Notes: a model not told the origin generated them from the sequence alone. 31,179 nt of DNA from a virus (IMGVR_UViG_2579779052_000007), one strand, 5' to 3'. Shown: positions 681-30,110, counted from the first letter of the stretch. Program-made: numbers and translations.

Positions 681-716
681 AGGTAAATAATAGATGCGAT
701 TACCGCAAGGTAAACA

Positions 717-756
717 ACCTGTGGGTATTGACTTTTGTTTACCTGTGGGTATTCTT
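717..756 (+). promoter_or_regulatory. Operator/promoter region between repressor and cro-like gene
   Basis: Two direct copies of ACCTGTGGGTAT (717-728 and 741-752); -35-like TTGACT at 728-733 and -10-like TATTCT at 750-755 with a 16-nt spacer; AAGGAG RBS precedes the ATG at 781. Confidence 0.4.
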
Positions 757-780
757 TGCTGTGTTTACTAAGGAGTAGCT

Positions 781-1062
781 ATGGAAGAATTAAGAATATT
801 TCTCAATTCTCTTTCGTCAGATGAACAGCGTATGTTTGCATGCGAGTGTGGTACCAGCATCGGTTATCTAAGAAAGGCATTGAGTAAAGGTCAAGTGTTA
901 GGGGCATCGTTATGTGTCCTTATTGAGCGAGCCAGTAATGGTGAAGTTACACGTCAGCAACTAAGGCCTTTTGATTGGATGAATATTTGGCCCGAGCTGG
1001 AAGATACCAAAACGTTAACACAACCACTTTCTAGGAGCTTGATTCATGAAAATCAAGCATGA
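781..1062 (+). CDS. Cro-like / YdaS-family HTH regulator
   Basis: 93-aa ORF divergent from the repressor gene, with an AAGGAG RBS; position and size match the Cro/YdaS slot of Rac-type immunity regions. Confidence 0.6.
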   Translation: MEELRIFLNSLSSDEQRMFACECGTSIGYLRKALSKGQVLGASLCVLIERASNGEVTRQQLRPFDWMNIWPELEDTKTLTQPLSRSLIHENQA

Positions 1063-1471
1063 ACACATCCGCATGGCGATGAATGCCTGGGCGCGTCCTG
1101 ATGGCGAAAAAGTTCCAGCAGCTGGAATAACCCAGGCTTATTTTGAGTTGGGTATGACGTTCCCGGAACTGTATGACGACAGCCATCCGGAAGCCCTGGC
1201 TCGCAATACCCAGAAAATTTTCCGCTGGGTAGAGAAAGACACCCCTGATGCTGTTGAAAAAATGCAGGCTCTGTTACCGGCGATCGAAAAGGCGATGCCG
1301 CCTTTGCTGGTGGCCCGTATGCGCAGCCACAGTTCTGAATATTACCGTGAGATCGTCGAACGGAGGGATCGGCTGGTGAAGGATGTCGATGATTTTGTTG
1401 CGTCAGCGGTTGTTTTGTATGACCAGATGAATCGCGGCGGCCCGGCAGGGAATGCTGTGGTGATGCACTAA
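1046..1471 (+). CDS. YdaT-like protein (CII functional analogue family)
   Basis: 141-aa ORF immediately downstream of and overlapping the Cro-like gene; AGGAG RBS; synteny with racR-ydaS-ydaT. Confidence 0.5.
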   Translation: MKIKHEHIRMAMNAWARPDGEKVPAAGITQAYFELGMTFPELYDDSHPEALARNTQKIFRWVEKDTPDAVEKMQALLPAIEKAMPPLLVARMRSHSSEYYREIVERRDRLVKDVDDFVASAVVLYDQMNRGGPAGNAVVMH

Positions 1472-1493
1472 AAGCACGGTGTTCGGGGGTTTT

Positions 1494-2456: not shown

Positions 2457-2462
2457 CGTGTC

Positions 2463-3209
2463 ATGAAAAACATTGCGGCAGTTGGGGTTCTTGAACGTAT
2501 TCGCAGACTTGCACCACAGGGGTCGGTTCCACCGTACCGGACGGTGGAGGAGTGGCGGGAATGGCAACTTGCTGAAGGACGAAAACGCAGCGAGGAGATT
2601 AACCGCCAGAATCGCCAGTTGCGGGTGGAAAAAATCCTGAATCGTTCGGGCATCCAGCCTCTGCACAGCAAATGCTCGTTTGCAAATTATCAGGTGCAGA
2701 ACGACGGGCAAAAATACGCGCTGAGCCAGGCCAAATCCATAGCTGACGAACTGATGACCGGGTGCACGAATTTTGTGTTCAGCGGTAAAACCGGCACCGG
2801 GAAAAATCACCTTGCAGCGGCGATGGGCAACCGGCTGATGGTGAAGGGGCGCAGCGTGATTATCGTCACCGTGTCTGACGTCATGAGCGTGTTGCATGAC
2901 AGCTACGACAACGGCAAATCCGGGGAAAAATTTTTACAGGAGCTTTGCGGGGTTGATTTGCTGGTCCTGGATGAAATAGGCGTTCAGCGGGAGACGAAAA
3001 ACGAGCAGGTGGTATTGCACCAGATAATTGATCGCCGGACAGCATCACTGTGCAGTGTCGGGATGTTAACAAACCTGAATCATGCCGCAATGAGTACGCT
3101 TCTTGGTGAGAGGATTATGGACCGCATGACCATGAACGGTGGTCGATGGGTGACGTTTAACTGGGATAGCTGGCGTCCAAATGTCAGCAATATGAGGGTT
3201 GTGAAGTAA
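2463..3209 (+). CDS. DnaC-like replicative helicase loader (IstB-like AAA+ ATPase; lambda P analogue)
   Basis: Walker A GKTGTGKNHLAAA and Walker B LLVLDEIG motifs; start codon 7 nt after the O-like stop; GGGGGTGA RBS. Confidence 0.8.
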   Translation: MKNIAAVGVLERIRRLAPQGSVPPYRTVEEWREWQLAEGRKRSEEINRQNRQLRVEKILNRSGIQPLHSKCSFANYQVQNDGQKYALSQAKSIADELMTGCTNFVFSGKTGTGKNHLAAAMGNRLMVKGRSVIIVTVSDVMSVLHDSYDNGKSGEKFLQELCGVDLLVLDEIGVQRETKNEQVVLHQIIDRRTASLCSVGMLTNLNHAAMSTLLGERIMDRMTMNGGRWVTFNWDSWRPNVSNMRVVK

Positions 3210-3230
3210 TTTTGTCCGGAGGAAATTTTA

Positions 3231-4001
3231 ATGGAAACCGTATCTGACGCACTGAAAGCACTGAAAAAAGCCTCTTCACATGTGGTGGCAGCTCGCCTTG
3301 GAATCAGTCGTGAAGAGGCTGTCAACGAGCTGTGGGAACTCAAAAGAAAAGGCGTCGTTGATAAAACTGGTCACACCTGGTTTCTGGCTGGCGAAGGTGA
3401 ATCCCGGGTAACCGAAGAGCGGCCAGTAAAATCTGAAGCACAGGATATGCTGACCGGGGAGGTCGAACAAAAAGTTACCGCAGACATGATGATTGAGTTT
3501 ATCGGTCAGGATGGGGCTAAAACGTGTGAGGAACTGGCGGGGAAGTTCGGTGTCAGTACTCGCAAGGTTGCTTCCACGCTGGCGGTGGTAACCGCAACGG
3601 GGCGGCTGGCACGCGTTAATCAGAACGGTAAATTTCGTTACTGCATGCCGGGCGATAATTTACCAGCAGAGCCGAAAGCCGCGCTGGTAACGGAAAGTGA
3701 TGGTAAGGCCTTTCCTCAGCCAGCAGGTGCTGCGTTACCAGTCCGGGAAGCCGCAACACAGGAAGAAATTAAAACAGAAACTGTGGCGGACATTGTGCAG
3801 CCGTTGCCATCGTTTACCGAAACGCAAGCAGATGAGCTGATTTTTCCGTCCCTTCGCAGGGCAAACCTGGCGCTGCGCAGGGCGAAAAGTGATGTTCAGA
3901 AGTGGGAGCGAGTCTGCGCCGCGCTGCGGGAGCTGAACAAGCACCGGGATATTGTTCGACAGATTACTGATTCTTCCCGCCGTGTTGTATCGGAAAAGTG
4001 A
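3231..4001 (+). CDS. Hypothetical phage protein
   Basis: 256-aa ORF with a GGAGG RBS in the early operon; no motif recognised. Confidence 0.4.
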   Translation: METVSDALKALKKASSHVVAARLGISREEAVNELWELKRKGVVDKTGHTWFLAGEGESRVTEERPVKSEAQDMLTGEVEQKVTADMMIEFIGQDGAKTCEELAGKFGVSTRKVASTLAVVTATGRLARVNQNGKFRYCMPGDNLPAEPKAALVTESDGKAFPQPAGAALPVREAATQEEIKTETVADIVQPLPSFTETQADELIFPSLRRANLALRRAKSDVQKWERVCAALRELNKHRDIVRQITDSSRRVVSEK

Positions 4002-4016
4002 TTGCCGGAGGCGCTT

Positions 4017-4442
4017 ATGGCAAAAGTATTTACACAAGAAGAGCGGGAAAAAATTAAAGGGCAGGTTGTTGAACTTGTACGTCTGAGCGGTCGCGAGACG
4101 TTGCGGCAACTGGAAGCCAGGACAGGTGCGACAAGATATCTGATGAGTGTTCTCGCCAGAGAGCTGGTTGCCAGTGGCGATGTATACAACTCTGGTTACG
4201 GGTTATTCCCGTCTGAACAGGCGCGTAAGGACTGGCAAAATGCTCGCAAAAAACTCTCAAGGGCAAAGGTGAAGAAACCTGCAGTGGTTGATCCGGACCT
4301 TATCTGGTCGTTACCAGACGGCGAAATACGCCGCTACGACAGGCGCCTGAATATAATCTGTCGCGAGTGCCGGAAGAGCGAAGCTATGCAGCGTGTACTG
4401 GCATTTTATCAAGGAAATGTTAGGTATTTTAGACGTTACTAG
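4017..4442 (+). CDS. Hypothetical phage protein
   Basis: GGAGG RBS before the ATG at 4017 (the track ORF begins at an upstream TTG at 4002); basic C-terminus. Confidence 0.4.
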   Translation: MAKVFTQEEREKIKGQVVELVRLSGRETLRQLEARTGATRYLMSVLARELVASGDVYNSGYGLFPSEQARKDWQNARKKLSRAKVKKPAVVDPDLIWSLPDGEIRRYDRRLNIICRECRKSEAMQRVLAFYQGNVRYFRRY

Positions 4443-4595
4443 ATTAAAGAGCATTAGTTCAGATGTGAATTGACATTTTCATGGCGCAGGGTAGAGCCAG
4501 CGTGGTTGTCCGCTTTGCGTCAAAACCAGATATTACCAGATTTAGACATATATTCCCGATAGACCTGCTCTGATGCTACACTCTGTGCTATTTTC

Positions 4596-5282
4596 ATGAC
4601 CCCAATAAAAATATTTATGACTATTGCTGATTTCAAACGGCCTAAATTGGAGCTCCCAAACGGGGCAAACAAACTACTACTGCACTCTTGCTGTGCTCCA
4701 TGTTCCGGTGAAGTGATGGAGGCGCTTCAGGCCTCGGGAATCGACTACACCATCTTTTTCTACAACCCGAACATTCATCCTCAGAAAGAGTATTTAATTC
4801 GTAAGGATGAAAATATTCGCTTTGCTGAACAACACGGCGTGCCGTTTATCGATGCTGATTACGACACCGACAACTGGTTTGAACGTGCCAAAGGAATGGA
4901 ATGGGAGCCTGAGAGGGGGATCCGTTGTACCATGTGTTTTGACATGCGTTTTGAGCGGACAGCGTTGTACGCTGCTGAAAATGGTTTCAGTGTGATCAGC
5001 AGTTCACTGGGCATTTCACGCTGGAAAAATATGCAGCAGGTTAACGAGTGTGGGCGGCGAGCTGTTGCGCATTATCCGGGTATGGTGTACTGGGATTATA
5101 ACTGGCGCAAGCAGGGCGGCTCGTCCCGTATGATTGAAATCAGCAAGCGCGAAAAATTCTATCAGCAGGAATATTGTGGCTGTGTGTATTCTCTGCGCGA
5201 TACCAATCTACACCGCAAATCTCAGGGACGCCCTCTTATCAAAATTGGCCAACTCCACTACGGAAAAGAAGAGAAGGAGTGA
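4596..5282 (+). CDS. queH: Epoxyqueuosine reductase QueH-like protein (DUF208 family)
   Basis: N-terminal [11 protein letters not shown] and C-terminal EYCGCVYS cysteine motifs as remembered for QueH; about 228 aa; stand-alone gene with its own upstream intergenic region. Confidence 0.6.
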
Positions 5283-5519
5283 TTTTATGGATCACCTTTC
5301 TGATTGATTTCATATTGGCGAGGTGACGTGAGTTAAGTAGAATGGCTGCGGGTGCTTGAGGCTATCTGTCTCAGGCATGAACACTGAAAGGCAGATAGAG
5401 AAAAGCCCCAGTTAACATTTCGCGTCCTGCAAGACGCTTAACATTAATCTGAGGCCCAATCTATGTCTCACAAATGTAGGTTAGCCTCTTACGTGCCGAA
5501 AGGCAAGGGGAAGCAGGCT

Positions 5520-5675
5520 ATGAAGCAGCAAAAGGCGATGTTAATCGCCCTGATCGTCATCTGTTTAACCGTCATAGTGACGGCACTGGTAACGAGGAAA
5601 GACCTCTGCGAGGTACGACTCCGAACCGGCCAGACGGAGGTCGCTGTCTTCACAGCTTACGAACCTGAGGAGTAA
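5520..5675 (+). CDS. hokD: Hok/Gef-family type I toxin (HokD/RelF-like)
   Basis: 51-aa translation MKQQKAMLIALIVICLTVIVTALVTRKDLCEVRLRTGQTEVAVFTAYEPEE matches the Hok/Gef signature; an in-frame upstream start at 5463 gives a mok-like leader ORF. Confidence 0.75.
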   Translation: MKQQKAMLIALIVICLTVIVTALVTRKDLCEVRLRTGQTEVAVFTAYEPEE

Positions 5676-5743
5676 GAGACCTGGCGGGGGAGAAATCCCT
5701 CGCCACCTCTGATGTGTCAGGCATCCTCAACGCACCCGCACTT

Positions 5744-5771
5744 AACCCGCTTCGGCGGGTTTTGTTTTTTT
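5744..5771 (+). terminator. Rho-independent terminator after the hok gene
   Basis: AACCCGC-TTCG-GCGGGTT hairpin followed by a T-rich run. Confidence 0.6.
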
Positions 5772-5842
5772 CTGGCATTCTGGTTTACAATTCGCACGTC
5801 AGCCTGAACACCTGACACCTGCTGCGCCAGCAGAGAAAACAG

Positions 5843-6115
5843 ATGGCGCACAAAACCAAATTTCACAATTCTGATACCGACCTTGCCATCCGGCATGGGC
5901 GGCGTTCACACGCATTTAAAACCGACTGGTACCAACACCCACCATGTACTGAAGAACAGGCCGAATGGCTAATTCATAACTACCGCAGACGCGGATACGA
6001 GATTAAGAAAGCCCTCAGCCTCGATTATCGTCACTGGATAATCTCCGTCAGGCTTCCTTACTCTGAACGCCCACCGCGTCCGTCCCGCACATTCCAGCAA
6101 CGCATCTGGAGGTAA
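5843..6115 (+). CDS. Hypothetical small protein (in the position of rem in Qin)
   Basis: 90-aa ORF whose stop is 1 nt before the next gene's GTG; its 3' end supplies a GGAGG RBS. Confidence 0.35.
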   Translation: MAHKTKFHNSDTDLAIRHGRRSHAFKTDWYQHPPCTEEQAEWLIHNYRRRGYEIKKALSLDYRHWIISVRLPYSERPPRPSRTFQQRIWR

Positions 6116-6116
6116 C

Positions 6117-7172
6117 GTGCGGGTATTACTTCGACCTGTTCTGGTACCGGAACTCGGGCTGGTGATCGTTAAGCCGGGCCGTGAATCCATGCCGGTATTC
6201 CACAATACCCGGGTACTGGTGGAGCCGGAACCGAAAAGCATGCGTAATCTGCCGTCCGGGGTCGTTCCTGCCGTTCGCCAGCCGCTGGCGGAGGATAAAT
6301 CATTACTGCCATTTTTCAGCGACGAACGAGTGATTCGTGCTGCTGGTGGCGCTGGCGCATTGTCTGACTGGTTACTGCGCCATGTTAAATCCTGCCAGTG
6401 GCCACACGGCGATTATCACCACAGTGAAACCGTCATTCACCGTTATGGTACCGGCGCAATGGTGTTGTGCTGGCACTGCGACAACCAGCTGCGCGACCAG
6501 ACCTCCGAATCACTCGGGCAACTTGCTCACCAAAACCTGTCTGCATGGATGATTGACGTCATACGCCATGCAATGAATGGCTCGCAGGAACGGGAATTAT
6601 CGCTGGCTGAATTATCCTGGTGGGCGGTCCGCAATCAGGTGGCGGACGCGCTACCGGAAGCGGTATTACGTCGTTCGCTGGGGTTGCGTGCGGAAAAAAT
6701 CCGCTCAATGTACCGTGAAAGCGACATCGTACCGGGAGAGCAGACCGCCACCAGCATACTGAAGCAGCGCACAAAAAATCTTGCGCCGCTGCCTCACGCC
6801 CACCAGCAAACCCCGCCACAGGAAAAGACGGTGGTCAGCATTGCCGTTGATCCGGAGTCACCGGCTCAGTATCTCCAGCGCCAGAAATCACAACGGGAAG
6901 AGATGCCTGTATACACGCGTTGGGTAAAAACGCAGAAATGCATGACGTGTGGCAATCAGGCAGATGATCCGCATCACATCATTGGTCATGGACTGGGAGG
7001 GATGGGAACAAAGGCTGATGATTTGTTTGTTATTCCGCTGTGCCGTAAATGCCATAGCGAACTACACGCCGGGGTAAAAGATTTTGAAGAAAAACACGGC
7101 AGCCAGCTGTTGTTGCTGATTCGTTTTTTAATGCACGCGAGAAATTCGGGTGTTCTGAAGTGGAAAGCATAA
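6117..7172 (+). CDS. DUF968 (YdfU-like) nin-region protein with a C-terminal Cys/His cluster
   Basis: 351-aa ORF with GTG start; C-terminal CMTCGN...HHIIGH...CRKCHSELH; synteny hok-rem-ydfU-rusA-Q as in Qin. Confidence 0.5.
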   Translation: MRVLLRPVLVPELGLVIVKPGRESMPVFHNTRVLVEPEPKSMRNLPSGVVPAVRQPLAEDKSLLPFFSDERVIRAAGGAGALSDWLLRHVKSCQWPHGDYHHSETVIHRYGTGAMVLCWHCDNQLRDQTSESLGQLAHQNLSAWMIDVIRHAMNGSQERELSLAELSWWAVRNQVADALPEAVLRRSLGLRAEKIRSMYRESDIVPGEQTATSILKQRTKNLAPLPHAHQQTPPQEKTVVSIAVDPESPAQYLQRQKSQREEMPVYTRWVKTQKCMTCGNQADDPHHIIGHGLGGMGTKADDLFVIPLCRKCHSELHAGVKDFEEKHGSQLLLLIRFLMHARNSGVLKWKA

Positions 7173-7538
7173 ATGACTGAACGCATAGAATTTGTTTTGC
7201 CTTACCCGCCAACGGTGAACACTTACTGGCGACGTCGTGGCAGCACATATTTTGTATCAAAAGTCGGTGAGCGTTATCGCCGTGATGTGGCGCTTATTGT
7301 TCGCCAGCAGCAACTGAAATTAAACCTGTCCGGAAGGCCGGCAATAGAAATTATTGCAGAGCCACCGGATAAGCGTCGTCGTGACCTGGACAATATCCTG
7401 AAGGCACCACTGGATGTACTGACGCATGCGGGGCTGCTCATAGACGACGAGCAGTTTGATGAAATTAATATTGTGCGCGGTCAGCTTGTTCCTGGTGGGC
7501 GGTTGGGGATAAAAATCACAGAACTGGAGTACGCATGA
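7173..7538 (+). CDS. rusA: Holliday junction resolvase RusA
   Basis: 121 aa with RusA-like motifs (RRRDLDN, catalytic Asp region, GGRL); positioned just before the Q-like gene. Confidence 0.8.
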   Translation: MTERIEFVLPYPPTVNTYWRRRGSTYFVSKVGERYRRDVALIVRQQQLKLNLSGRPAIEIIAEPPDKRRRDLDNILKAPLDVLTHAGLLIDDEQFDEINIVRGQLVPGGRLGIKITELEYA

Positions 7539-8224
7539 ATAACCAGTATTTACAGTTTGTTCGTGAGCAACTCATGATTGCCACCGCCGATTTGAGTGGA
7601 TCAACAAAAGGGCAGCTTGAGGCCTGGCAGGAGAATGCCATGTTTGATACAGGGCGTTACAGGCGTAAAAAAATCCGGTACCGCGATGAAGTGACTGGAA
7701 AAATGATAACGCGGGATAATCCACCAATCCCGGGAAAGCAATCGCTGGCGAAGGGGGTGTCAATTCCTCTCGTCAGTCCGGTTGAGTTTTCGACATCATC
7801 GTGGCGGCGGGCTGTTCTGTCTCTTGAAGAACATCATAAAGCCTGGTTGTTGTGGTGTTACAGCGGGAGTATTTGTTGGGAATATCAGATCGCGATAACG
7901 CAGTGGGTGTGGAATGAATTTAAAACCCGGTACGGCACCAGAAAAATTGCAGGGAAAACGCAGGAGCGCGTGAAGAAGTTGATCTGGCTGGCGGCACAGG
8001 ATGTCAGAGGATGGATTACCGGGTGTGAGGTCTACCAGAGACAGGAGCTTGCCAGACTGTGTGGAGTTAAGCCTGATAACTGGAGCCATAATTATGCGAA
8101 CTACTGGCGTGAGATGTGCGATATTTTTAAGAGTCTCGATAGAGAATCTGTGATTTGCACCGTGAAAATAAGAGCGCAACAAAAAGCGACTTTTTCACGA
8201 CGAGATATTGCAAAAGTCAATTAA
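7535..8224 (+). CDS. Putative late antiterminator Q-like protein
   Basis: 229-aa ORF overlapping the rusA stop (ATGA); position after rusA and before a short terminated leader; not lambda-Q-like by eye, so family unconfirmed. Confidence 0.45.
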   Translation: MNNQYLQFVREQLMIATADLSGSTKGQLEAWQENAMFDTGRYRRKKIRYRDEVTGKMITRDNPPIPGKQSLAKGVSIPLVSPVEFSTSSWRRAVLSLEEHHKAWLLWCYSGSICWEYQIAITQWVWNEFKTRYGTRKIAGKTQERVKKLIWLAAQDVRGWITGCEVYQRQELARLCGVKPDNWSHNYANYWREMCDIFKSLDRESVICTVKIRAQQKATFSRRDIAKVN

Positions 8225-8292
8225 ATAGCGTACGTTTCGTATAAATCTGATATTTTGCCGATTTTGTACGCGATGGCAAAGTAAGAAAAAAA

Positions 8293-8315
8293 CTGCCGTC
8301 AGGCGGTTTTTTTTT
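8293..8315 (+). terminator. Rho-independent terminator about 70 nt after Q (tR'-like)
   Basis: CTGCC-GTCA-GGCGG hairpin followed by T9. Confidence 0.45.
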
Positions 8316-8437
8316 ATGCCCAAAATCGCGTCAGTACAGTAAACACGCTGGTGGTTGCGAATACGGGTCTTTCAGCTTGCTGGCTTTTTCGACAAGAGTT
8401 ATTGGTATGTCACGTTAACCGGAAAAAGGAAAAAGAC

Positions 8438-8635
8438 ATGCTAAAACAGCAGGATATGACAGAAACCGCCAGAGTGGTGTTTAATGAATTAAGCGTTACC
8501 GAACCGGCGACAGTCGGGGAGATAGCGCAGAATACTTACCTTTCACGCGAACGCTGCCAGTTAATACTGACCCAGCTGGTTATGGCGGGTCTGGCAGACT
8601 ATCAGTTCGGTTGTTACAGACGCCTTCAGTCCTGA
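8438..8635 (+). CDS. Hypothetical small protein
   Basis: 65-aa ORF from an internal ATG of the track ORF 8351-8635; followed by a hairpin plus T-run at about 8620-8648. Confidence 0.3.
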   Translation: MLKQQDMTETARVVFNELSVTEPATVGEIAQNTYLSRERCQLILTQLVMAGLADYQFGCYRRLQS

Positions 8636-8785
8636 AGGCTTTTTTATTTGTGGTAAATGGGCGGCTGGTGGGTGTTAGGGGCACCCACCAGCCATCTGCT
8701 CATGCGTTGGGTTCACAAGCAAACCTCAGGCCCACTGCTTTGCGCAAAAGCAGAATGAGCCTATCAGAGACAGGCTTAATGATCC

Positions 8786-9835
8786 ATGCTTAATACTGTA
8801 AAAATATCCAGTTGTGAGTTAATCAACGCCGACTGCCTGGAATTTATCCGGTCGTTACCCGAAAATTCTGTTGACCTGATAGTCACGGACCCGCCGTACT
8901 TTAAAGTGAAGCCTGAGGGCTGGGATAACCAGTGGAAGGGCGACGATGATTACCTGAAGTGGCTGGACCAGTGTCTGGCGCAGTTCTGGCGGGTGCTGAA
9001 ACCTGTCGGAAGTCTTTACCTGTTCTGTGGTCATCGCCTGGCATCTGATATCGAAATCATGATGCGTGAACGCTTCAGTGTGCTGAACCATATTATCTGG
9101 GCGAAGCCGTCCGGACGCTGGAACGGATGCAACAAGGAAAGCCTGCGGGCGTATTTCCCCGCCACAGAGCGCATTCTGTTCGCGGAACATTATCAGGGGC
9201 CGTATCGTCCGAAAGATGCCGGGTATGCGGCGAAGGGCAGTGCACTGAAACAGCATGTGATGGCCCCGCTGATTTCTTACTTTCGTGATGCGCGCGCTGC
9301 CCTGGGGATAACGGCAAAACAGATTGCAGATGCCACAGGAAAGAAAAACATGGTGTCGCACTGGTTCAGTGCCAGTCAGTGGCAGCTACCGAACGAAAGC
9401 GATTATCTGAAATTACAGTCGCTGTTTGCCCGGGTGGCAGAAGAGAAACATCAGCGCGGTGAACTGGAAAAGCCCCACCACCAGCTGGTGGATACGTATA
9501 CGTCACTGAACCGGCAGTATGTGGAGCTGCAGAGTGAATATAAGCATCTGCGGCGGTATTTTGGTGTGACGGCGCAGGTGCCGTACACGGATGTGTGGAC
9601 ACATAAACCGGTGCAGTTCTATCCCGGGAAACATCCGTGCGAAAAACCGGCAGAAATGCTGCAGCAGATAATCAGCGCAAGCAGTCGTCCGGGTGACCTG
9701 GTTGCAGATTTTTTTATGGGCTCAGGTTCAACGGTAAAAGCGGCACTGGCGCTTGGGCGTCGTGCGATTGGCGTTGAACTGGAGACCGGACGTTTTGAGC
9801 AGACAGTCAGGGAAGTTCAGGATTTAATCGTTTGA
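8786..9835 (+). CDS. Orphan DNA methyltransferase (N6-adenine/N4-cytosine family, DPPY motif)
   Basis: DPPY catalytic motif near the N-terminus (VTDPPYF) and a C-terminal AdoMet-binding-like FFMGSGST; no adjacent restriction endonuclease. Confidence 0.8.
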   Translation: MLNTVKISSCELINADCLEFIRSLPENSVDLIVTDPPYFKVKPEGWDNQWKGDDDYLKWLDQCLAQFWRVLKPVGSLYLFCGHRLASDIEIMMRERFSVLNHIIWAKPSGRWNGCNKESLRAYFPATERILFAEHYQGPYRPKDAGYAAKGSALKQHVMAPLISYFRDARAALGITAKQIADATGKKNMVSHWFSASQWQLPNESDYLKLQSLFARVAEEKHQRGELEKPHHQLVDTYTSLNRQYVELQSEYKHLRRYFGVTAQVPYTDVWTHKPVQFYPGKHPCEKPAEMLQQIISASSRPGDLVADFFMGSGSTVKAALALGRRAIGVELETGRFEQTVREVQDLIV

Positions 9836-9884
9836 AACGGATGAGATTGCAGAATTAATTACGCACCATTATTATTCTGCTCCC

Positions 9885-9960
9885 GGCCCTTTAGCTCAGT
9901 GGTGAGAGCGAGCGACTCATAATCGCCAGGTCGCTGGTTCAAATCCAGCAAGGGCCACCA
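9885..9960 (+). tRNA. ileZ: tRNA-Ile2 (anticodon CAU, lysidine type)
   Basis: 76 nt ending in CCA; anticodon loop CTCATAA; near-identical by eye to the remembered E. coli tRNA-Ile2. Confidence 0.8.
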
Positions 9961-9967
9961 TCACATA

Positions 9968-10044
9968 CCGCCATTAGCTCATCAGGAAAGAGCGCCAGCT
10001 TTCGAAGCTGGTTGCGCGGAGTTCGGGTCCCCGAAGGCGGTCCA
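9968..10044 (+). tRNA. argN: tRNA-Arg (anticodon UCG)
   Basis: 77 nt with CCA; D-arm AGCTCATCAGG...GAGC; anticodon loop TTTCGAA between a CCAGC/GCTGG stem. Confidence 0.65.
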
Positions 10045-10057
10045 TTATCTGTATCCT

Positions 10058-10134
10058 GCGTTGTTAGCTCAGCCGGACAGAGCAATTGCCTTCTAAGCAA
10101 TCGGTCACTGGTTCGAATCCAGTACAACGCGCCA
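10058..10134 (+). tRNA. argO: tRNA-Arg (anticodon UCU)
   Basis: 77 nt with CCA; anticodon loop CTTCTAA; T-loop GGTTCGAATCC; acceptor stem GCGTTGT/ACAACGC. Confidence 0.8.
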
Positions 10135-10149
10135 CACTTATTTTCCCTG

Positions 10150-10172
10150 GCTCGCTTTTGCGGGCTTTTTTT
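10150..10172 (+). terminator. Rho-independent terminator after the tRNA cluster
   Basis: GCTCGC-TTTT-GCGGGC hairpin followed by T7. Confidence 0.5.
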
Positions 10173-10178
10173 AAATGT

Positions 10179-10392
10179 CTCACAATTCAGGCGGTTGACT
10201 GTTGTCTGGTTTGCGGGGAGTTTGTTAAAAGAAACTGGCATGGTGAATCCCCCTGTGCGGAGGGGCAATCAGCGAGTAGGTATATGGGATAATCGCGGAT
10301 TCAGGTGCTGGTACTGAATTCACCGGGAGGCACCCAGCACCATGCAATGGCACATAGCGCCACTCTCCAGCCCCTCTCCGGAGGGGCTTTTC
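10179..10392 (+). ncRNA. Candidate small RNA / late-promoter-terminator unit, copy 1
   Basis: Conserved CTCACAATTCAG box, TTGACT at 10195-10200, flanking inverted repeat GCATGGTG (10238-10245) / CACCATGC (10338-10345), terminator CCCCTC-TCCG-GAGGGG plus T-run at 10371-10392; no convincing ORF. Confidence 0.35.
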
Positions 10393-10646
10393 TGTGCCGG
10401 ATACATCACAGTTTCTGGAACCTTAGGTACTACAGTATCAGTCAGGGTGCTATATTTTCAGATGTGATGAAAGCCTGTCAGCAGGCAGGGCGTATCGGAA
10501 ATGACCCAGTAGAGAAAACGTTGACTCAGATACCGGTGCTGAGTTACCGGGAAACCGGCATCACATGACCGCTATCCTTCCAGGCCCATCCGCTCCGGTG
10601 GGCCTTTTTACTGCAGAAAACAGGTTCCCCGTTAAATGCTATGTTG

Positions 10647-10880
10647 CTCACAATTCAGTAAGTTGACAGTTGCCTGTCAGACTGGGCATTTGTTAAAAAA
10701 ATTTCGCATGGTGAATCCCCCTGAGCGGAGGGGCGACTGGTGACGGTATAATCTCTGATTATCAAAACGAGAATGACGCGGGTTTAGTGGCACCGGGCTG
10801 AACTCACCGGGAGGCACCCGGCACCATGTGCATGATGATACAGATACGCGGCTTTAGCCCCTCTCCGGAGGGGTTTTCTT
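10647..10880 (+). ncRNA. Candidate small RNA / late-promoter-terminator unit, copy 2 (paralogue of 10179-10392)
   Basis: Same architecture: CTCACAATTCAG, TTGACA at 10663-10668, GCATGGTG (10706-10713) / CACCATG (10822-10828), TATAAT at 10747-10752, terminator at 10858-10880. Confidence 0.35.
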
Positions 10881-11108
10881 GTGGGCAAAAAAAGCCCGCG
10901 CTGGGAGACGCGGGCGGCAAGGAATAAACAATAAAACGTGAAGTAATATTTCAGCTGGCGAATAATATCCGACAGTAATCACTCTGCGCAATAGCGCGGC
11001 CTTTTTCGTATTGCGGGCTGTTGTCTCTCTTCTGCCATTGTCCTGTAACTTCCGGACTTCAGCCCGCTCCTCATTTTACTCACAATATTATCCCGGCCGG
11101 GAGGATTC

Positions 11109-12962
11109 ATGGCATTTAAACACTATGATGTTGTCAGGGCGGCGTCGCCGTCAGATCTTGCGGAAAAGCTGACACATAAACTGAAAGAGGGCTGGCAGCC
11201 GTTTGGTAGTCCGGTGGCCATAACCCCTTATACCCTGATGCAGGCGATTGCAGCAGAAGGTGATGTGGTCGTCAGTGGTGCAACTGAGCCGGAGTGGTAC
11301 TACGTCATCGTACTGGCCGGGCAGTCCAATGCCATGGCTTACGGTGAAGGGCTTCCGCTTCCGGATTCATACGATGCGCCCCATCCGCGCATTAAGCAAC
11401 TGGCCCGTCGTAACACAGTGACTCCCGGTGGTGAAGTATGCGTATTTAACGACATCATTCCTGCTGACCATTGTCTGCATGATGTTCAGGATATGAGTAC
11501 GATTAACCATCCCCGGGCTGACCTGAGCAAAGGGCAGTACGGCTGTGTCGGACAGGGCTTACATATTGCCAAAAAACTGCTTCCGTATATCCCTAATAAT
11601 GCGGGGATCCTGCTGGTACCATGCTGTCGTGGTGGTTCGGCATTCACCCAGGGCGCGGAGGGGACATTCAGTGCGGACACGGGGGCCAGCCAGGATTCGG
11701 CACGCTGGGGTGTGGGTAAACCGTTATATCAGGATCTGCTTTTCCGCACGAAGGCAGCATTGCAGAAAAACCCGAAAAACGTTTTGCTGGCGATATGCTG
11801 GATGCAGGGGGAATTCGATATGACGAATGCCAGTTACGCCCAGCAGCCAGCAGCATTTCTTGCAATGGTACAGCAGTTCCGTGCTGACCTTACCGGGCTG
11901 GCGGCGCAGTGCCATGGCGGCAGTGCTGCAGTTGTACCGTGGATTTGTGGCGACACGACGTATTACTGGCAAAACACATACGGCACACAGTATGACTCCG
12001 TCTACGGCGCGTACAAAAACAGGGAGAGCGACAACGTTTTCTTTGTGCCGTTCATGACCGACGGTAACGGCAACAACACGCCCACCAACTTACCGGCAGA
12101 AGACCCGGATATTGCTGATGCAGGTTATTACGGCGCGCAATCCCGTAGTAATGGTAATTGGGTATCGTCAAATCGTCCGACACATTTCAGTTCATGGGCG
12201 CGCAGGGGCATTATTTCGGATCGCCTGGCAACCGCTATTCTGAACGCAGTTGGTCGAACCAGCGCCTTCATCAGCGGTACCGCACCGGAGATTAAACCCT
12301 CGCCCGGCGGCGACACTCCATCGGGGCCGTCTGATGGTGACACATCCGTTCGTACAGTCTCCCTGCTGCCGACAGCCGGAGAGGCTGCTGCGCAGGGCTG
12401 GACCATCACCGGCGGCAGTGTTGCGCTGGAAGATGGTGTGTTTAAGGTTACCAAGCAGAGCAATAAAACCTGGTCCCTGATGCATCCGGTGGATGACGCA
12501 GTCTCCCTGCTGACACGGGGTGGCAGACTGAGCTGTAAGTTTCGACTGTCAGGCGCACTGACCAACAACCAGTTCGGTCTGGGAATTTATCTGTATACCG
12601 ATGTAGCGTTACCTGACGTCGTGGCGATGACCGGGACTGGTAACCCGTTCCTGATGTCGTTCTTCACCCAGACCACAGACGGCAAACTGAATCTGATGCA
12701 TCACAAGAAAGCAGGAAACACAAAGTTGGGCGAGTTCGGGAATTACAGTAACGACTGGCAGACGCTGGAGCTGGTGTTCACCGCCAGCAGTGCCACGGTT
12801 ACTCCGAAACTGAATGGAGTGGCTGGCCCGGCATTCCAGGTCATAAAAGACAGTCTGACACTGGGGCTGAATGCACTGACGCTGACGGATATTACCAAAA
12901 ATGCAACGTATGGCGTTGAGATAGAAAGTCTGGTGCTGGAAATAAATAGTCCTGCAGCGTAA
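11109..12962 (+). CDS. nanS-p: NanS-p-type sialate O-acetylesterase (SGNH/SASA domain with C-terminal carbohydrate-binding-like region)
   Basis: 617 aa; GGAGG RBS; VIVLAGQSNAMAY motif of the SGNH/SASA esterase family; sits downstream of the phage tRNA cluster as the esterase gene does in Stx phages. Confidence 0.75.
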   Translation: MAFKHYDVVRAASPSDLAEKLTHKLKEGWQPFGSPVAITPYTLMQAIAAEGDVVVSGATEPEWYYVIVLAGQSNAMAYGEGLPLPDSYDAPHPRIKQLARRNTVTPGGEVCVFNDIIPADHCLHDVQDMSTINHPRADLSKGQYGCVGQGLHIAKKLLPYIPNNAGILLVPCCRGGSAFTQGAEGTFSADTGASQDSARWGVGKPLYQDLLFRTKAALQKNPKNVLLAICWMQGEFDMTNASYAQQPAAFLAMVQQFRADLTGLAAQCHGGSAAVVPWICGDTTYYWQNTYGTQYDSVYGAYKNRESDNVFFVPFMTDGNGNNTPTNLPAEDPDIADAGYYGAQSRSNGNWVSSNRPTHFSSWARRGIISDRLATAILNAVGRTSAFISGTAPEIKPSPGGDTPSGPSDGDTSVRTVSLLPTAGEAAAQGWTITGGSVALEDGVFKVTKQSNKTWSLMHPVDDAVSLLTRGGRLSCKFRLSGALTNNQFGLGIYLYTDVALPDVVAMTGTGNPFLMSFFTQTTDGKLNLMHHKKAGNTKLGEFGNYSNDWQTLELVFTASSATVTPKLNGVAGPAFQVIKDSLTLGLNALTLTDITKNATYGVEIESLVLEINSPAA

Positions 12963-19185: not shown

Positions 19186-19758
19186 CTATTTATACAATAC
19201 AACACCGCTCTTTTTAGTTATATATGTGCAGTTCGATGGTATATCTTTATTTATAAAAGACATTGCACCTATTTTTACATTATCCCCAATTTTACGTGAT
19301 AATCCAATGATGCAACAATTAGCTCCGATATCAACGTTACTACCAATTTTTACTCTTGAACCAGGCATGTCACCATCTATCTGTCCAATGGTAGTATTCT
19401 GTCGTAACACCAGATTTTCACCAGCATCAACAGCAAAATGAACAACAATTCCAGCATGATGGGGAATTGTTAACCCTTTTCCAATATTTGCGCCCAATCC
19501 AATTTCACAACCAAATTTGTTAATTATTTTACTGTTTAACTTTTTGGCTGCTTTCTTATGTAATTTATTACCATTAATATACATTTCGTTAGCCAACCGC
19601 CACCAGAAAAGGAAATTCCGGTTACGCTGTTTTTTCTCTCTTAAAAGCCTCCAGATATCCATACGTTTCCGCCGAATTACTTCATATTTCCAGAAGTTTT
19701 TTAAATTAGTAGAGTCCCCAAATAAAACAAAGTGAATTGCCATTAAGTAAGACAGCAC
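19186..19758 (-). CDS. Hexapeptide-repeat (left-handed beta-helix) acetyltransferase moron
   Basis: AT-rich gene on the opposite strand; repeated G.N..IG hexapeptide pattern; GTG start at 19758 with AAGGAG RBS preferred over the upstream track ATG. Confidence 0.7.
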   Translation of the reverse strand: MLSYLMAIHFVLFGDSTNLKNFWKYEVIRRKRMDIWRLLREKKQRNRNFLFWWRLANEMYINGNKLHKKAAKKLNSKIINKFGCEIGLGANIGKGLTIPHHAGIVVHFAVDAGENLVLRQNTTIGQIDGDMPGSRVKIGSNVDIGANCCIIGLSRKIGDNVKIGAMSFINKDIPSNCTYITKKSGVVLYK

Positions 19759-19914
19759 GATAATCTCCTTAATTATTATTTCAGACCACACATATTATAA
19801 GGTTAAGAGATTATAAAATCCTGTTGTTTGTTATTCAAAAACAATTTTCTGAGAAGGACATACAACAGCAAGTCGCCAGTCACCTTCATCAGGAAATTGG
19901 CGACATACGTTAAA

Positions 19915-25647: not shown

Positions 25648-26748
25648 ATGACCGATACCACCATGCAATTGCTCAGTCAGAGCACAGACCCCGTGAAAAT
25701 GCCGGATTTTGATATTCTCGCGGAGGGGGAAACACTGTCCGGCGTGGCAGAGCGCCTGATGAGCCTGTCACTGACCGACAACCGGGGATTTGAAGCGGAC
25801 CTGCTCACCATCACGCTGGATGATGCGGATGGTCAGTTGCAGCTACCGCCACGGGGCGCGCGCCTGACGGTTCTCATTGGCTGGAAAGGAGAACCGCTGA
25901 CAGAAAAAGGCACTTACATTGTTGATGAAATCGCTCACGAAGGACCGCCGGACAGGCTGACTGTTTCAGCCAGAAGCGCAGATTTTCGGGATGAATTTAA
26001 CGTTAAACGTGAGGTGTCCTGGCATGATGTGACCGTTGAGCGCGTGGTATCCGCCATCGCTCATCGGTACGGTCTGAAACCACAAATCAGCGAAATGCTG
26101 ATGGATATTGAAATCGACCACGCCGACCAGACCGAAGAAAGCGACATGTCCTTCCTTACGCGCATGGCGGAAATGCTGGGCGCAATCACTACGGTAAAAA
26201 GCAGTAATCTGTTATTCATCATGCCAGGCGGTGGCGTGAACGCACAGGGCCAGCCGTTGCCATCGTTCGCCATCACGCGCAGCAGTGGCGATCGCCATCA
26301 GTTCCGCATTGCTGACCGCGAAGCGTATACGGGGGTACGTGCTTACTGGCTTGATCTTAATTACGGGAAAAAGAAAAAAGTCAGCGTGAAACGCCGCAAA
26401 CCGAAAAAGGAGAAAAGCAGCAGCCGTGAAGGTGACTATATGGAAGGTGCGGAAGGCAACGTGTTTGTGTTACGCAAGACTTATCAGAACGAGCAGGCAG
26501 CAAGACGTGCAGCGGCGGCAAAGTGGCAGCAGCTACAACGCGGAGCCGCATCATTCTCCATCACGCTGGCGCGTGGACGCGCAGAACTCTATCCCGAAAT
26601 GCATGGCACGGTGACAGGCTTCAAAAGTGACATCGATAATCAGGACTGGATTATTGCAAAAGCCGAGCACACCATTGATAACAGCGGCTTTACCACACAG
26701 CTTGAGCTTGAAGCAAAAATCCCGGAATGGATAGCAGAAACAGAATGA
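25648..26748 (+). CDS. D: Tail protein, P2 gpD-like
   Basis: GGGAGGG RBS before the ATG at 25648 (the track ORF extends to 25516); about 366 aa; lies upstream of ogr. Confidence 0.75.
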   Translation: MTDTTMQLLSQSTDPVKMPDFDILAEGETLSGVAERLMSLSLTDNRGFEADLLTITLDDADGQLQLPPRGARLTVLIGWKGEPLTEKGTYIVDEIAHEGPPDRLTVSARSADFRDEFNVKREVSWHDVTVERVVSAIAHRYGLKPQISEMLMDIEIDHADQTEESDMSFLTRMAEMLGAITTVKSSNLLFIMPGGGVNAQGQPLPSFAITRSSGDRHQFRIADREAYTGVRAYWLDLNYGKKKKVSVKRRKPKKEKSSSREGDYMEGAEGNVFVLRKTYQNEQAARRAAAAKWQQLQRGAASFSITLARGRAELYPEMHGTVTGFKSDIDNQDWIIAKAEHTIDNSGFTTQLELEAKIPEWIAETE

Positions 26749-27162
26749 GCAAATTAGATGTATTGACTCAAACCAGAACTGACACACTCACAGCACAGTG
26801 CCAGACCCAATCTGGCAGCCCGCTTTGTGCCTAGAGCAGGTGTTGCTTATGTAACAGTTAATCCACGGATAGTGGTCATGAATGCTGGTTGAAGTTGTAT
26901 TGCCATGAGTGGTCAATTAGGGACTCACTTATTATCGCGTGCTCACCATTGATGGGTAAGATCATGCATTTCGGCTACTGTACTTCGCGAATCCTCCGCA
27001 CACAGGCAACACCTGATTTAAGAACAGAGGGAGATGATGACGCAAGGAAGATTTATTATCGTGCATGTGGCAGATGATCTTTTAGCTGCCGGAGTGATAA
27101 ATTACACCTATTTTCGATAAGTGTTTTTGTTATAGAACATTAATTTCGTGGGAAACAATAAA

Positions 27163-28287
27163 GTGAAATTAGGAAGAAATGATAAGTGCTGGTGTAATTC
27201 AGGACTTAAGTATAAAAAGTGCCATCTTGGTCGAGATCGTGAAACTCCGGTATCCAAAGCCGAGGCACTGAAATTTTCAAAGTCTCTCTCGCAGAGAAAG
27301 GCATGTTATGCGCCAGCATCCATGCACGAAGATTGTGATAAACGCATCGTTCAGGCGCATACGATATCTAAGAGCAGTAGCCTTAAGGCGATCGCCGACT
27401 CCAGCAATCACGTCATGGGGGTGATAATGAACTTAGCAAGCCTGATGAGAAACAACGGAAAATGGCTTCCCGAGAAGATCGGTATCAATCAGGCATCCAC
27501 TTTTACAGGATTTTGTGCAGTTCATGACAGAATCTTATTTTCATGCCTAGAGAACGAAAAATTTACAGGCACGGACGAGCAGTGCTTTGCCTTAATGTTT
27601 CGTTCATTGTCTAAAGAAATTTATGCCAAAGAAGGGGGAGTGCTATCTTCTGATTTTGCTAAAAATGCCGATAAAGGAAAGCTACAAGTTGAACAGTATT
27701 ATATTCAGAAATTAATCGACCAGCACCAAAGTGGCTTAAATGCAGCAATAATTGAATTAAATAATCTTAAAACTAGCCTCGACCGCATCCTACTTAGCAG
27801 GCAATTTTCAGAAATTGAAAGTGTTATCTTCACTTTTGCAGAGCCTTTACCAATTGTAGTTTCGTCAATTCTTTCACCGGAGAGGGATTTCGATGGGACC
27901 AAAATTCAGGATTTGAGCGATCTTACAGTGTCGGCGGAACAAGTATGTTTCAATGCTTTTTCCTGCGGAGGTAAGGGATATGTAGTGTTCAGTTGGCTGA
28001 GAACTTCAACAATTATCAGACGTTTTATACGGACACTAATTAAGATCCCAGCTAACAGGATGTTCAATACCCTTCTGTATTTTTTCTTCACAAAGGCCGA
28101 AAATACATATTCATCCCCTGAGTGGTGGGACAGGCTCAGTGATAAACAGCGAGAGAATATCGGCAACATGATTATGTCAGGGGTTGAATTTTTTGGCATA
28201 CCTACATCACAGGTTGATCATTCCGTTGATTATAACGCCGCTGCACTTGAAGAGATAACATGCAGCAACAACGAAATTTGCAGCTGA
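27163..28287 (+). CDS. SEC-C-motif protein of unknown function (AT-rich moron between D and ogr)
   Basis: N-terminal KLGRNDKCWCNSGLKYKKCH resembles the SecA C-terminal zinc motif; start must be a GTG (27163, or 27148 as in the track) because the first in-frame ATG lies after the motif. Confidence 0.5.
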   Translation: MKLGRNDKCWCNSGLKYKKCHLGRDRETPVSKAEALKFSKSLSQRKACYAPASMHEDCDKRIVQAHTISKSSSLKAIADSSNHVMGVIMNLASLMRNNGKWLPEKIGINQASTFTGFCAVHDRILFSCLENEKFTGTDEQCFALMFRSLSKEIYAKEGGVLSSDFAKNADKGKLQVEQYYIQKLIDQHQSGLNAAIIELNNLKTSLDRILLSRQFSEIESVIFTFAEPLPIVVSSILSPERDFDGTKIQDLSDLTVSAEQVCFNAFSCGGKGYVVFSWLRTSTIIRRFIRTLIKIPANRMFNTLLYFFFTKAENTYSSPEWWDRLSDKQRENIGNMIMSGVEFFGIPTSQVDHSVDYNAAALEEITCSNNEICS

Positions 28288-28576
28288 ATGTTTACATGCT
28301 GTTAGAAAAAGCGGGCTGAACAATCATTTCGGGATTGTAACAGATAAGATGGCACTGCCCGCTTGCTTCCCGATATGCACCTCAGCCAATAAACTTATGT
28401 AAGCAACCGATTTCCATTTATGCGGAGGTTATCAAAGTTGTTGGAGTTGCGAACTTCCGCTCTTCGCACAAAGCGTACCGCTAGGTTTGATTGTATTCTG
28501 GCTGCGCAAACTGTCAGTTGGAGTCTGAGCTATTACAACTTAGAATAGCGGCAGCACCACGTTAAGGGAGGTCGCT

Positions 28577-28837
28577 ATGTTCCGTTGTCCGCTTTGTGGC
28601 GCATCTGCCCGAATCCGCACCAGTCGTCCGGAAAACGATTCAAACACTGTGCGGCAAAAGTATTACCAGTGTAACAACCTGGAATGCGGCGTATGCTTCT
28701 CAACACTGGAAGCTTTCCATAAATTCACATCAAAACACGCCTCCGGCGTTCACTCTTCGGAAGGTATCCCGTGGCATGAGCTGCCAGCTTCACACAGGGG
28801 AAACAATCAGATGAGTTTGCCTTTACCTCAGAATTAA
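28577..28837 (+). CDS. ogr: Ogr/Delta-family zinc-finger late transcription activator
   Basis: MFRCPLCGASARIRTSR...YYQCNNLECG: four-Cys zinc finger and overall similarity to P2 Ogr; AAGGGAGG RBS. Confidence 0.8.
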   Translation: MFRCPLCGASARIRTSRPENDSNTVRQKYYQCNNLECGVCFSTLEAFHKFTSKHASGVHSSEGIPWHELPASHRGNNQMSLPLPQN

Positions 28838-29026
28838 CAGGCAGAATTGCCGGAGTAACAAAAAAACGATAGATTACCCGCGGGTGCCTTTCGGCTGATG
28901 GTCGGAGGAATACCCGAAGGCCGGATGTGGAAAGGCCCCGGAAAACATTTCTGTTTAACCGAGGCCCTAACATATCTACCTTAAGCAAGTGATAGGTTAG
29001 CGCCTCTCCAACAAAGGAGCAAGCGC

Positions 29027-29167
29027 TATGTCGCAAAAATCGCTTACAGCCATCACGTTCTGCGTGACGGTAATCCTCATCATCTGGATGCTACACGGTT
29101 CGCTGTGTGAAATACGGATGAGCTTCTGGGGAGCGGAGTTTGCGGCGTTCTTACAGTGTAAGCAGTA
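29027..29167 (+). CDS. Hok-family type I toxin (HokA-like); below the ORF-track size cutoff
   Basis: 46-aa translation MSQKSLTAITFCVTVILIIWMLHGSLCEIRMSFWGAEFAAFLQCKQ has a single transmembrane helix and the SLCE...AAFL signature; AGGAG RBS 8 nt upstream. Confidence 0.6.
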
Positions 29168-29256
29168 AGGAAACCGCGACGGGGGAGCAATCCCCCGTCA
29201 ATCGGTTGCTAAGGTTGGCTGAAGTGGCACCCTATCTCACAGACATGAACAACAAA

Positions 29257-29356: not shown

Positions 29357-29638
29357 TTACTCAGCATTCTCCTGCTTCCATTGCCGGATCATTTCATCGG
29401 TAACATCACCCTCATAACATACCACGTCATACCCTCCATTACGGCTATATGCACTGCGTCCACCACATCTACTACCATTCCTTGCATGATTATAAGGACA
29501 CGCACAATTGCCTGGATAAGATTCAATGGATTCTTTAATTATTTCTTTTTTGATCTGAGCATCAGACTTTCCTGTTGCTGCATATCCACTAAAAGATACT
29601 AAACAAAGGCAGATTGCCATTAATAAACCACATCGCAT
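29357..29638 (-). CDS. Small Cys-containing protein with predicted signal peptide, hypothetical
   Basis: AT-rich ORF; from the internal ATG at 29638 the product begins MRCGLLMAICLCLVSFSGYAA (signal-peptide-like); weak RBS. Confidence 0.3.
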   Translation of the reverse strand: MRCGLLMAICLCLVSFSGYAATGKSDAQIKKEIIKESIESYPGNCACPYNHARNGSRCGGRSAYSRNGGYDVVCYEGDVTDEMIRQWKQENAE

Positions 29639-30110
29639 ACCGATACACTCTATTACTAACCAATCATAGCCCACATCATAAAATCGAGATGAGGAGTACA
29701 ATACCTTTAACAAGAAGGTGTCATAACGATAATATGTCGTGCAATTCATCAAAAAAAAGATCTATATCAAAGAGATAGAAGTCTTATCAGCGCTTCAGAC
29801 ATCGGCATTCGAGGCAGCAGAAAAACAGTAAATCTGACGAATTTGCCTTTTCCCAAGATGTTGTCAGATTAAAAAGATAGATTAGCGCAGGTACCTGTTG
29901 GTGGATTGCAGGAGGAAAAATGAAGTCGAGTGAAAAAATCCCAGAAAAATTTTTGTTTAACAGAGGTCCTGGTTCACTATGCGAAATACGGAGGAGCTGC
30001 AGAAGAATTCTGCTTCATCCTTAGAGTTTAAACAGCACGTGCACTACCATTGTTTCTGCATATCGCCACACCATCGCCACTCTACCGCCATTGCACAAAA
30101 TACAAATAAC

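Follow-up and report, generated by a model that had tools for sequence, protein, structure and literature searches.

The locus described here raises two questions: what is encoded by the lone AT-rich gene found between two conserved genes of a P2-type prophage, and how such a gene could have reached its place. The gene lies in IMGVR_UViG_2579779052_000007, a stretch of viral DNA of 31,179 nucleotides that was analysed at its full length and is called the window below, where it separates the tail gene D from the late activator gene ogr. A previous interpretation made without database searches (the sequence-only reading) had regarded it as a moron of one gene with an accessory or defence role, inserted where such prophages vary, and could not assign its product, a protein with a SEC-C zinc motif, to a described defence family. 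Such an assignment can be made: the protein is full-length homologous to Rugutis, for which an anti-phage effect of the single protein was proven in Lactococcus (Grafakou et al., NAR 2024, PMC11381338).

We searched for relatives of the protein by several independent routes. A word-indexed search returned 297 of them, and an exhaustive profile search defined the family as 1,489 clusters (50% identity) at E<=1e-30, with proteins of about 370 amino acids (aa). When the plasmid database PLSDB was searched with tblastn, a match over aa 5-284 (E 5e-27) was obtained with the SEC-C gene carried by pUCCL633A and by its sister plasmids; since the SEC-C coding sequence of pUCCL633A is 359 aa long, we took it to be Rugutis (pUCCL633_059). 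BLASTP against this protein gave 26% identity over 358 columns (aa 5-347, E 3e-37), and the hhalign comparison of a 36-sequence family profile with it reached a probability of 100% (E 1.8e-39) and covered 345 of the 359 residues, so that the homology to pUCCL633_059 extends beyond the SEC-C motif. The gene has no conserved partner: its neighbours differ in every context examined, and the inserted unit in which it lies contains one conserved open reading frame (ORF). On the counts of sequence, architecture and fold the protein therefore belongs to the Rugutis family. Judged by these comparisons, it is an enterobacterial member of the family, solitary and with a fold that has no solved relative.

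The resemblance to the lactococcal protein concerns many properties at once. Both proteins are solitary and of similar length (359 versus 379 aa), carry the SEC-C motif at the N-terminus, align over nearly their full length and have invariant C, H, D, E and R residues in common; for both of them a confident AlphaFold (AF2) model has no neighbour in the PDB, and both are carried by mobile elements. The differences are also clear. The identity is only 26%, the host of Rugutis is Gram-positive whereas it is Gram-negative here, and the carrier is a plasmid instead of a cassette in a P2-type prophage. The fourth zinc ligand of Rugutis is Cys, in place of H26 here, and Rugutis does not have H88 and N114, which the gammaproteobacterial clade keeps invariant. 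In the literature we found nothing on the accession of this protein, or on SEC-C together with terminase, beyond the Rugutis papers.

The SEC-C motif that the sequence-only reading had noticed at the N-terminus is matched by Pfam PF02810 (E 2e-8, 34.4 bits versus a cutoff of 20.4). It is present in 36 of 36 aligned homologues, where R10, N11, C14, C16, C25 and H26 are invariant, and the same residues (aa 10-27) also match SecA C-terminal zinc peptides in the PDB. Outside the motif the protein matched no Pfam, PADLOC v2, NCBIfam or PHROGs family, and when all 36 homologues were compared with Pfam at E<=10, SEC-C was again the only match; the earlier reading had likewise recognised no motif in the body. 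A PADLOC scan and a structure model had both been suggested earlier as checks. The scan with PADLOC v2 returned matches at the level of the SEC-C motif alone (models E2, E1-E2 and PDC-S12, aa 4-50) and left the body unmatched, and according to a 2026 paper the Rugutis family is absent from the current defence-annotation tools PADLOC and DefenseFinder. The AF2 model of the 379-aa protein was confident, but it had no significant neighbour in the PDB, and a PDB sequence search with a body-only profile gave nothing below E 0.4. A relation to DUF4238 was considered on account of an AHTxSKS...L..IA motif and of the DUF4238 system known from P2 hotspots (Rousset 2022), and was rejected, since no match was obtained at E<=10 in any of the 36 members.

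The best-conserved part of the body is its core at aa 53-158. In the broad alignments A4 and A5, which take in Rugutis together with the Enterococcus hirae, Shinella, Bradyrhizobium and pKPN5 proteins and include relatives without SEC-C, the residues C53, C63, A70-H71, G112, F122-C123, H126-D127, F131, E135, R152, E157 and D247 are invariant, and E318-N319 and P324 nearly so. The SEC-C motif is missing from the relatives on Bradyrhizobium pBel61 (L019, 4908-5903) and Klebsiella pKPN5 (L020, 4992-6134), both of which retain the invariant C/C/H...FCxxHD...E...R...E core. Thus the zinc motif is an accessory module of the family. The pattern of conservation suggests that the core (aa 53-158) is a candidate second metal site plus catalytic or switching centre.

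The position of the motif also bears on the start of translation. The first in-frame ATG codes for M58 and lies 3' of the SEC-C motif, therefore a non-ATG start is needed, as was proposed earlier, and the GTG at 27148 is kept in five of five independent cassette copies. A second GTG at 27163 would give a protein of 374 aa with the family-typical N-terminus MKLGRN; in one copy this codon is GAG. The start is GTG 27148 or GTG 27163, and the SEC-C motif is translated under both. A ratio of nonsynonymous to synonymous substitutions (dN/dS) of 0.13-0.16, calculated against three cassettes of about 83% identity, indicates that the gene is under purifying selection. It was found in 92 of 5,426 complete Escherichia coli genomes and on mobile elements in the sampled cases; in 80 of these genomes it is >=99% identical and flanked by D and ogr, and in 12 it is about 87% identical. 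The hairpin formed by AAGCGGGC and GCCCGCTT directly 3' of the stop codon could be a terminator, though it has no T-run.

The place of the gene can be judged by comparison with related prophages. The window is essentially identical to the P2-type prophage of E. coli O103 RM8385, which is shared by many O111/O103 Shiga-toxin-producing strains and adjoins tRNA-Leu/Cys/Gly and pgsA, and its closest sequenced phages are P88-like (Peduoviridae, Xuanwuvirus). The D-ogr site is empty in P88, Chuche and P88_4B11, and in the latter two ogr begins 42 bp after D, which agrees with the direct succession of these genes that the sequence-only reading took as canonical. In an evenly spaced sample of 38 E. 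coli prophages matching both flanks, 22 sites were empty and 16 occupied; the occupants were GmrSD, PIN (two sizes), DUF2971, a ComF-like pair, the SEC-C gene, membrane or hypothetical proteins and one IS481 insertion sequence (IS). As the IS481 lies between ogr and hok and not between D and ogr, the candidates for the site itself are 15 of 38. Four prophages were checked, with GmrSD, DUF2971, PIN and ComF cargos, and in each of them the extra genes stand precisely between D and ogr. Among related E. coli prophages, D-ogr is a hotspot for cargo genes. Whether homologues recur here in other P2-like prophages had been posed as a check. They do so only in part: copies are present at D-ogr in other E. 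coli, but these are near-identical, and the diverged homologues lie at other sites.

P2 has known defence hotspots at old/tin, between A and Q, and at Z/fun, between G and FI (Rousset et al. 2022; NAR 2026, PMC13586616), and D-ogr is not singled out in these papers. The cargo described here resembles that of the known hotspots in being AT-rich, rapidly swapped and a single system of 1-2 kb between conserved phage genes, with recognised defence genes among the alternative cargos. It differs in its position at D-ogr of P88-like (Xuanwuvirus) prophages and in being a unit with inverted-repeat ends and direct repeats. As a side observation, the D-ogr site of E. coli strain A1 carries a DUF2971 protein (L028, 3082-3867), and DUF2971 is the domain found in Aristaios, which like Rugutis is a plasmid-borne anti-phage system of Lactococcus. 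The D-ogr hotspot thus has counterparts of two of the seven 'dairy' systems (SEC-C/Rugutis and DUF2971/Aristaios).

More distant homologues were found as solitary genes in prophages, satellite-like islands and plasmids. The Salmonella relative is located in an island with an integrase, AlpA and a DUF927-primase together with AAA_15 and DUF4435 (PARIS-type) genes, the Halomonas relative stands beside an OLD-type nuclease, the relative on an E. hirae plasmid adjoins an AbiH family gene, and the Klebsiella pKPN5 relative follows closely on pifC and a P-loop NTPase. Another E. coli relative was found in an AlpA/H-NS island, that of Pantoea in a variable region where it adjoins DUF6602, that of Klebsiella aerogenes at the edge of a siphovirus-type prophage, that of Pseudomonas in an integrase/zeta-toxin island and that of Providencia in another P2-like prophage, on the integrase side. 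Among sequenced phages the relatives are confined to two Listeria phage records, and isolated coliphages contributed none. The homology to Rugutis, the D-ogr hotspot and the defence genes beside the relatives together support the earlier view that a moron of one gene, with an accessory or defence role, occupies a site of variable content.

The insert itself could be delimited precisely. The match to the empty-site phages ends at 26758 and restarts at about 28536, and the G+C content, 0.50-0.60 in the flanking DNA, drops to about 0.40-0.42 within the insert; the AT-rich insertion, estimated previously at about 1.8 kb, is thus a cassette of 1,779 bp with 42% G+C. Where the occupied site has AATTAGA and ACTTAGA, the empty phages have one ACTTAGA at D-ogr. 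The ends of the cassette are imperfect inverted repeats of about 95 nt: the left 100 nt and the reverse complement of the right 100 nt share 66 identical columns (z 8.3 versus shuffles). The left end starts with 5'-TGTATTGACTCAAACCAGAACTGACAC, the right end closes with CAGTTGGAGTCTGAGCTATTACA-3', and the right-end motif stands directly upstream of ogr in 17 IMG/VR contigs. The leader between the left end and the gene may be a promoter or a 5' untranslated region. No Rfam family was matched in it, and a consensus fold of three leaders showed too little covariation for a judgement. An ORF in this part of the insert (26889-27077) was rejected as a gene, since homologous cassettes have an 11-nt indel that breaks its frame.

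The same ends are not confined to this cassette. The terminal motif TGYATTAGCTCAGAC-N5/6-CTGAC was present at both ends of five other cargos examined at D-ogr, a terminal motif was common to seven cassettes, and the end comparison (about 95 nt) gave z 11.9 for the cassette of L009 and 9.4 for that of L073 versus shuffles. The end-sharing loci are L009 (5798-7425), L073 (1797-3771), L027-L030, L005 and L076 (4507/7729); in at least six other end-sharing cassettes the cargos are GmrSD, PIN, DUF2971, ComF-like, DUF6602 and a membrane protein. A SEC-C cassette in an unrelated AlpA/H-NS island matches the ends of the window cassette in 22 of 26 terminal bases and has a perfect 6-bp GATAGC on both sides. 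In another strain identical ends and GATAGC surround a DUF6602 gene, and 14 genomes contain the predicted empty island site uninterrupted, with one GATAGC. About 50 nt in from each end there is a subterminal hairpin motif (AATCTGACAG-TCCGCTnTGTGCCAGAAGCGG), the two copies being inverted relative to each other. The hairpin motif also flanks cargo on both sides at the classical Z/fun hotspot of a different P2-like prophage, and it is present next to a type I restriction system in a YeeP/Ag43 island. Genomes contain few copies of the end motif (median 1). The H-NS island forms a second hotspot (L070-L073 and L009) with the order DUF4756 - H-NS - cargo - H-NS-like - ... - AlpA-type helix-turn-helix - DUF6387. 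It occurs in about 787 of 5,426 genomes as an integrative element other than a P2-type prophage, and its cargos include SMODS+SLATT (CBASS-like), NACHT, DUF6602, DUF6404, thioredoxin-domain and Ser/Thr kinase genes.

As far as the ends can be read, they suggest a family of non-autonomous, cargo-carrying transposable cassettes as the simplest explanation. Such an arrangement is reminiscent of mobile insertion cassettes (MICs) and other non-autonomous transposon derivatives, in which passengers also lie in terminal inverted repeats flanked by short target-site duplications, the interior is free of transposase and empty sites can be recovered. In distinction to these, none of the IS examined matches the repeats found here, which are about 95 nt long, begin with TGYATTAGCTCAGAC and carry a subterminal hairpin, and the passengers are genes of defence type situated at hotspots of phages and islands. 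There was no transposase inside any examined cassette, and no autonomous element with matching ends was found. The IS481-family element between ogr and hok (L074) was considered as the mobiliser and rejected, as its inverted repeats and duplication differ. Inverted-repeat cassettes in defence hotspots were not found described in the literature. Our tentative proposal, which we hold somewhat less probable than its opposite, is that the Rugutis-like gene is a passenger of an undescribed family of non-autonomous cassettes with 6-7-bp target duplications, and that an enzyme acting in trans would deliver or exchange defence genes at D-ogr, Z/fun and other E. coli islands. One would argue alternatively that there was one old insertion per site, followed by exchange of the cargo through the shared ends.

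The function of the gene is approached through its lactococcal relative, and by this analogy it probably protects the lysogen against other phages. Rugutis acts after DNA injection and has an abortive-infection-like phenotype in lysis-in-broth assays (PMC11381338): the cultures survive at low multiplicity of infection and show growth arrest or death at high multiplicity (PMC11381338). In phage c2 the mutations that allow escape lie in the large terminase, within its ATPase domain (PMC12184496), and co-expression of the c2 terminase cuts viability only when Rugutis is present (Mosterd et al. 2025; PMC12184496). From these data on Lactococcus Rugutis we propose that the E. coli protein would be a one-component sensor-effector set off late in infection. 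The trigger would be the large terminase of the invader or its packaging ATPase activity, a part of the proposal that we consider doubtful, and the activated protein would arrest or kill the cell before the progeny is completed. C53, C63, C123 and H126, together with H71, D127, E135, R152 and E157, could form a metal-dependent catalytic or switch centre, while the SEC-C motif would tether or regulate the protein; its tethering to ribosomes or SecB is speculation by analogy with SecA-type metal-binding domains.

Several observations weigh against a defence function or against its proposed mechanism. The escape-mutant terminase is still toxic with Rugutis, which leaves the terminase link incomplete (PMC12184496), and Rugutis was tested from a high-copy vector, with some constructs unstable (PMC11381338). 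The anti-phage phenotype is known from the Lactococcus protein only and is predicted for the proteobacterial members; with 26% identity between proteins of Gram-positive and Gram-negative hosts, the two may differ in function and in trigger. The scans described above assigned no enzymatic fold or motif to the protein. The sites given by a promoter and terminator scan were no more numerous than those in shuffled sequence, and none lay 5' of the gene; a strong sigma-70 consensus was likewise not found, and expression of the gene in the lysogen is a prediction. A few relatives are found among ordinary chromosomal genes (Aeromonas, Psychrobacter), and the prophage of the window is a lambdoid/P2-like hybrid without the P2 head genes.

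Some of these points would also fit a moron that has nothing to do with defence, such as a ribosome- or SecB-associated regulator, a stress factor or a lysogenic-conversion factor, whose relation to Rugutis would be structural only. The SEC-C motif occurs in SecA, YecA, YchJ and methionyl aminopeptidase, i.e., in proteins of many functions, some homologues lie among metabolic genes, and the defence role of the proteobacterial members is, as said, a prediction. We regard this explanation as unlikely, since the homology to a protein of measured anti-phage activity is full-length and goes beyond the motif, GmrSD and PIN genes occupy the identical insertion site in sister prophages, and relatives stand repeatedly beside PARIS-type, OLD-type, AbiH family and pifC-linked genes. 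Still less probable is a selfish stabiliser, i.e., a latent toxin held by the leader (through RNA or autoregulation) that would penalise loss of the cassette, with the anti-phage effect as a by-product. About 330 nt of conserved non-coding leader always accompany the gene, Rugutis constructs are unstable in some hosts and a hok/sok addiction module is located nearby. However, the leader matches no known antitoxin RNA, no covariation support was obtained, and the same ends are used by cassettes with different cargo, therefore stabilisation is not needed to explain the architecture.

The annotation in RefSeq points in yet another direction, as the product is named there 'YecA family protein'. 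The metal-binding domain proteins YecA, YchJ and SecA do have the CxC...C[HC] zinc motif of SEC-C, but in them it is C-terminal and joined to UPF0149, an NTF2-like domain or the SecA motor, and the body of our protein is dissimilar. The similarity to YecA is limited to the motif of about 20 residues: PRK10396 scored 17.9 bits versus a cutoff of 149 with the motif alone matched, and this match is to the C-terminus of the model, whereas the motif is N-terminal here. The RefSeq name thus rests on the SEC-C motif alone, and the gene is present in only 92 of the 5,426 complete genomes and on mobile elements in the sampled cases. The PRK10396 score and the distribution of the gene effectively refute the YecA assignment. 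It is also very improbable, if slightly less so, that the gene is a decaying remnant without function. Such decay could be imagined in a rearranged hybrid prophage, and one E. coli genome does have a copy that matched over 56% of the gene length only, but the frame is intact, the identity is 99-100% in 80 genomes and the dN/dS value speaks of constraint. Anti-phage defence remains for us the probable function of the gene. The features on which these considerations are based are collected in Table 1.

Table 1. Features of the D-ogr region in the window, with positions counted from its first nucleotide.
Feature	Position	Strand	Evidence
Gene D, left anchor (tail baseplate hub / late control D)	25648..26748	+	PF05954; RefSeq annotation of identical locus
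Flanking direct repeat, left copy AATTAGA	26752..26758	.	comparison with empty sites
Inserted cassette, 1,779 bp, 42% G+C	26759..28537	.	alignment to P88, Chuche, P88_4B11
Left terminal inverted repeat, with subterminal hairpin motif at 26809-26844	26759..26853	+	end comparison
Conserved non-coding leader	26854..27147	+	about 83% identical in Salmonella, Pantoea and E. coli cassettes
Rugutis-like SEC-C protein, coding sequence	27148..28287	+	297 homologues, BLASTP, hhalign, dN/dS
SEC-C zinc-binding motif, ligands C14, C16, C25, H26	27175..27228	+	PF02810, aa 10-27
Best-conserved body core, aa 53-158	27304..27621	+	broad alignments A4, A5
Hairpin directly 3' of the stop codon	28309..28364	+	inverted pair; region 78% conserved in L009
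Right terminal inverted repeat	28443..28537	-	end comparison
Flanking direct repeat, right copy ACTTAGA	28538..28544	.	comparison with empty sites
ogr, right anchor (Ogr/Delta zinc-finger late activator)	28577..28837	+	PF04606 E 5e-14; RefSeq

The remainder of the window has a composite character. Its left 11 kb are lambdoid and comprise a YdaT-like gene, O/P-type replication genes, DUF1627, DUF977, QueH, DUF968, the antiterminator Q and a DNA methylase; tRNA-Met/Arg/Arg genes follow at 9885-10134. The junction of the lambdoid part with the P2-type tail module falls within a SASA/DUF6645 (NanS-p-like) esterase gene common to both (11109-12962), where the identity to the O103 P2-like prophage begins at 11288 and lambdoid prophages match through at least 12800. 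The pattern of positions 1-12962 is that of a hybrid or rearranged prophage without the P2 head and replication genes. The classical Z/fun cargo position, flanked by the tail-fibre assembly gene and the tail genes, is taken by a gene for a hexapeptide-repeat acetyltransferase (19186-19791, minus strand; serine O-acetyltransferase in RefSeq), which may be a lysogenic-conversion gene. The hok/sok-type addiction module directly after ogr (28882-29168) is conserved in P88-like phages; its Hok/Gef ORF occupies 29028-29168 (Pfam E 3.7e-7), and the sok-like RNA at 28882-29038 scored 46.7 bits in Rfam, under the gathering score of 59. An AT-rich ORF of 131 aa (29357-29752, minus strand) lies between this module and tRNA-Leu/Cys/Gly, at the border of prophage and chromosome; it has no family match, and RefSeq has a shorter hypothetical protein there.

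What has been found is a new member of the known Rugutis family, proteobacterial and carried by a prophage, and not a new kind of system. Its finding corrects a misleading RefSeq annotation, 'YecA family protein', and the D-ogr junction can be counted among the P2-type defence hotspots. The anti-phage activity of Rugutis is validated, its large family is mechanistically unsolved and missing from the defence-annotation tools, and a member in Shiga-toxin-producing E. coli (O103, O111, O157) offers a tractable host and phage collection for studies of its sensing and effector activities. The cassette ends, in turn, are a concrete lead on how defence genes reach phage hotspots: if the proposal of such cassettes is true, at least a part of the rapid cargo swapping at these hotspots would be transposition, and not homologous or illegitimate recombination.

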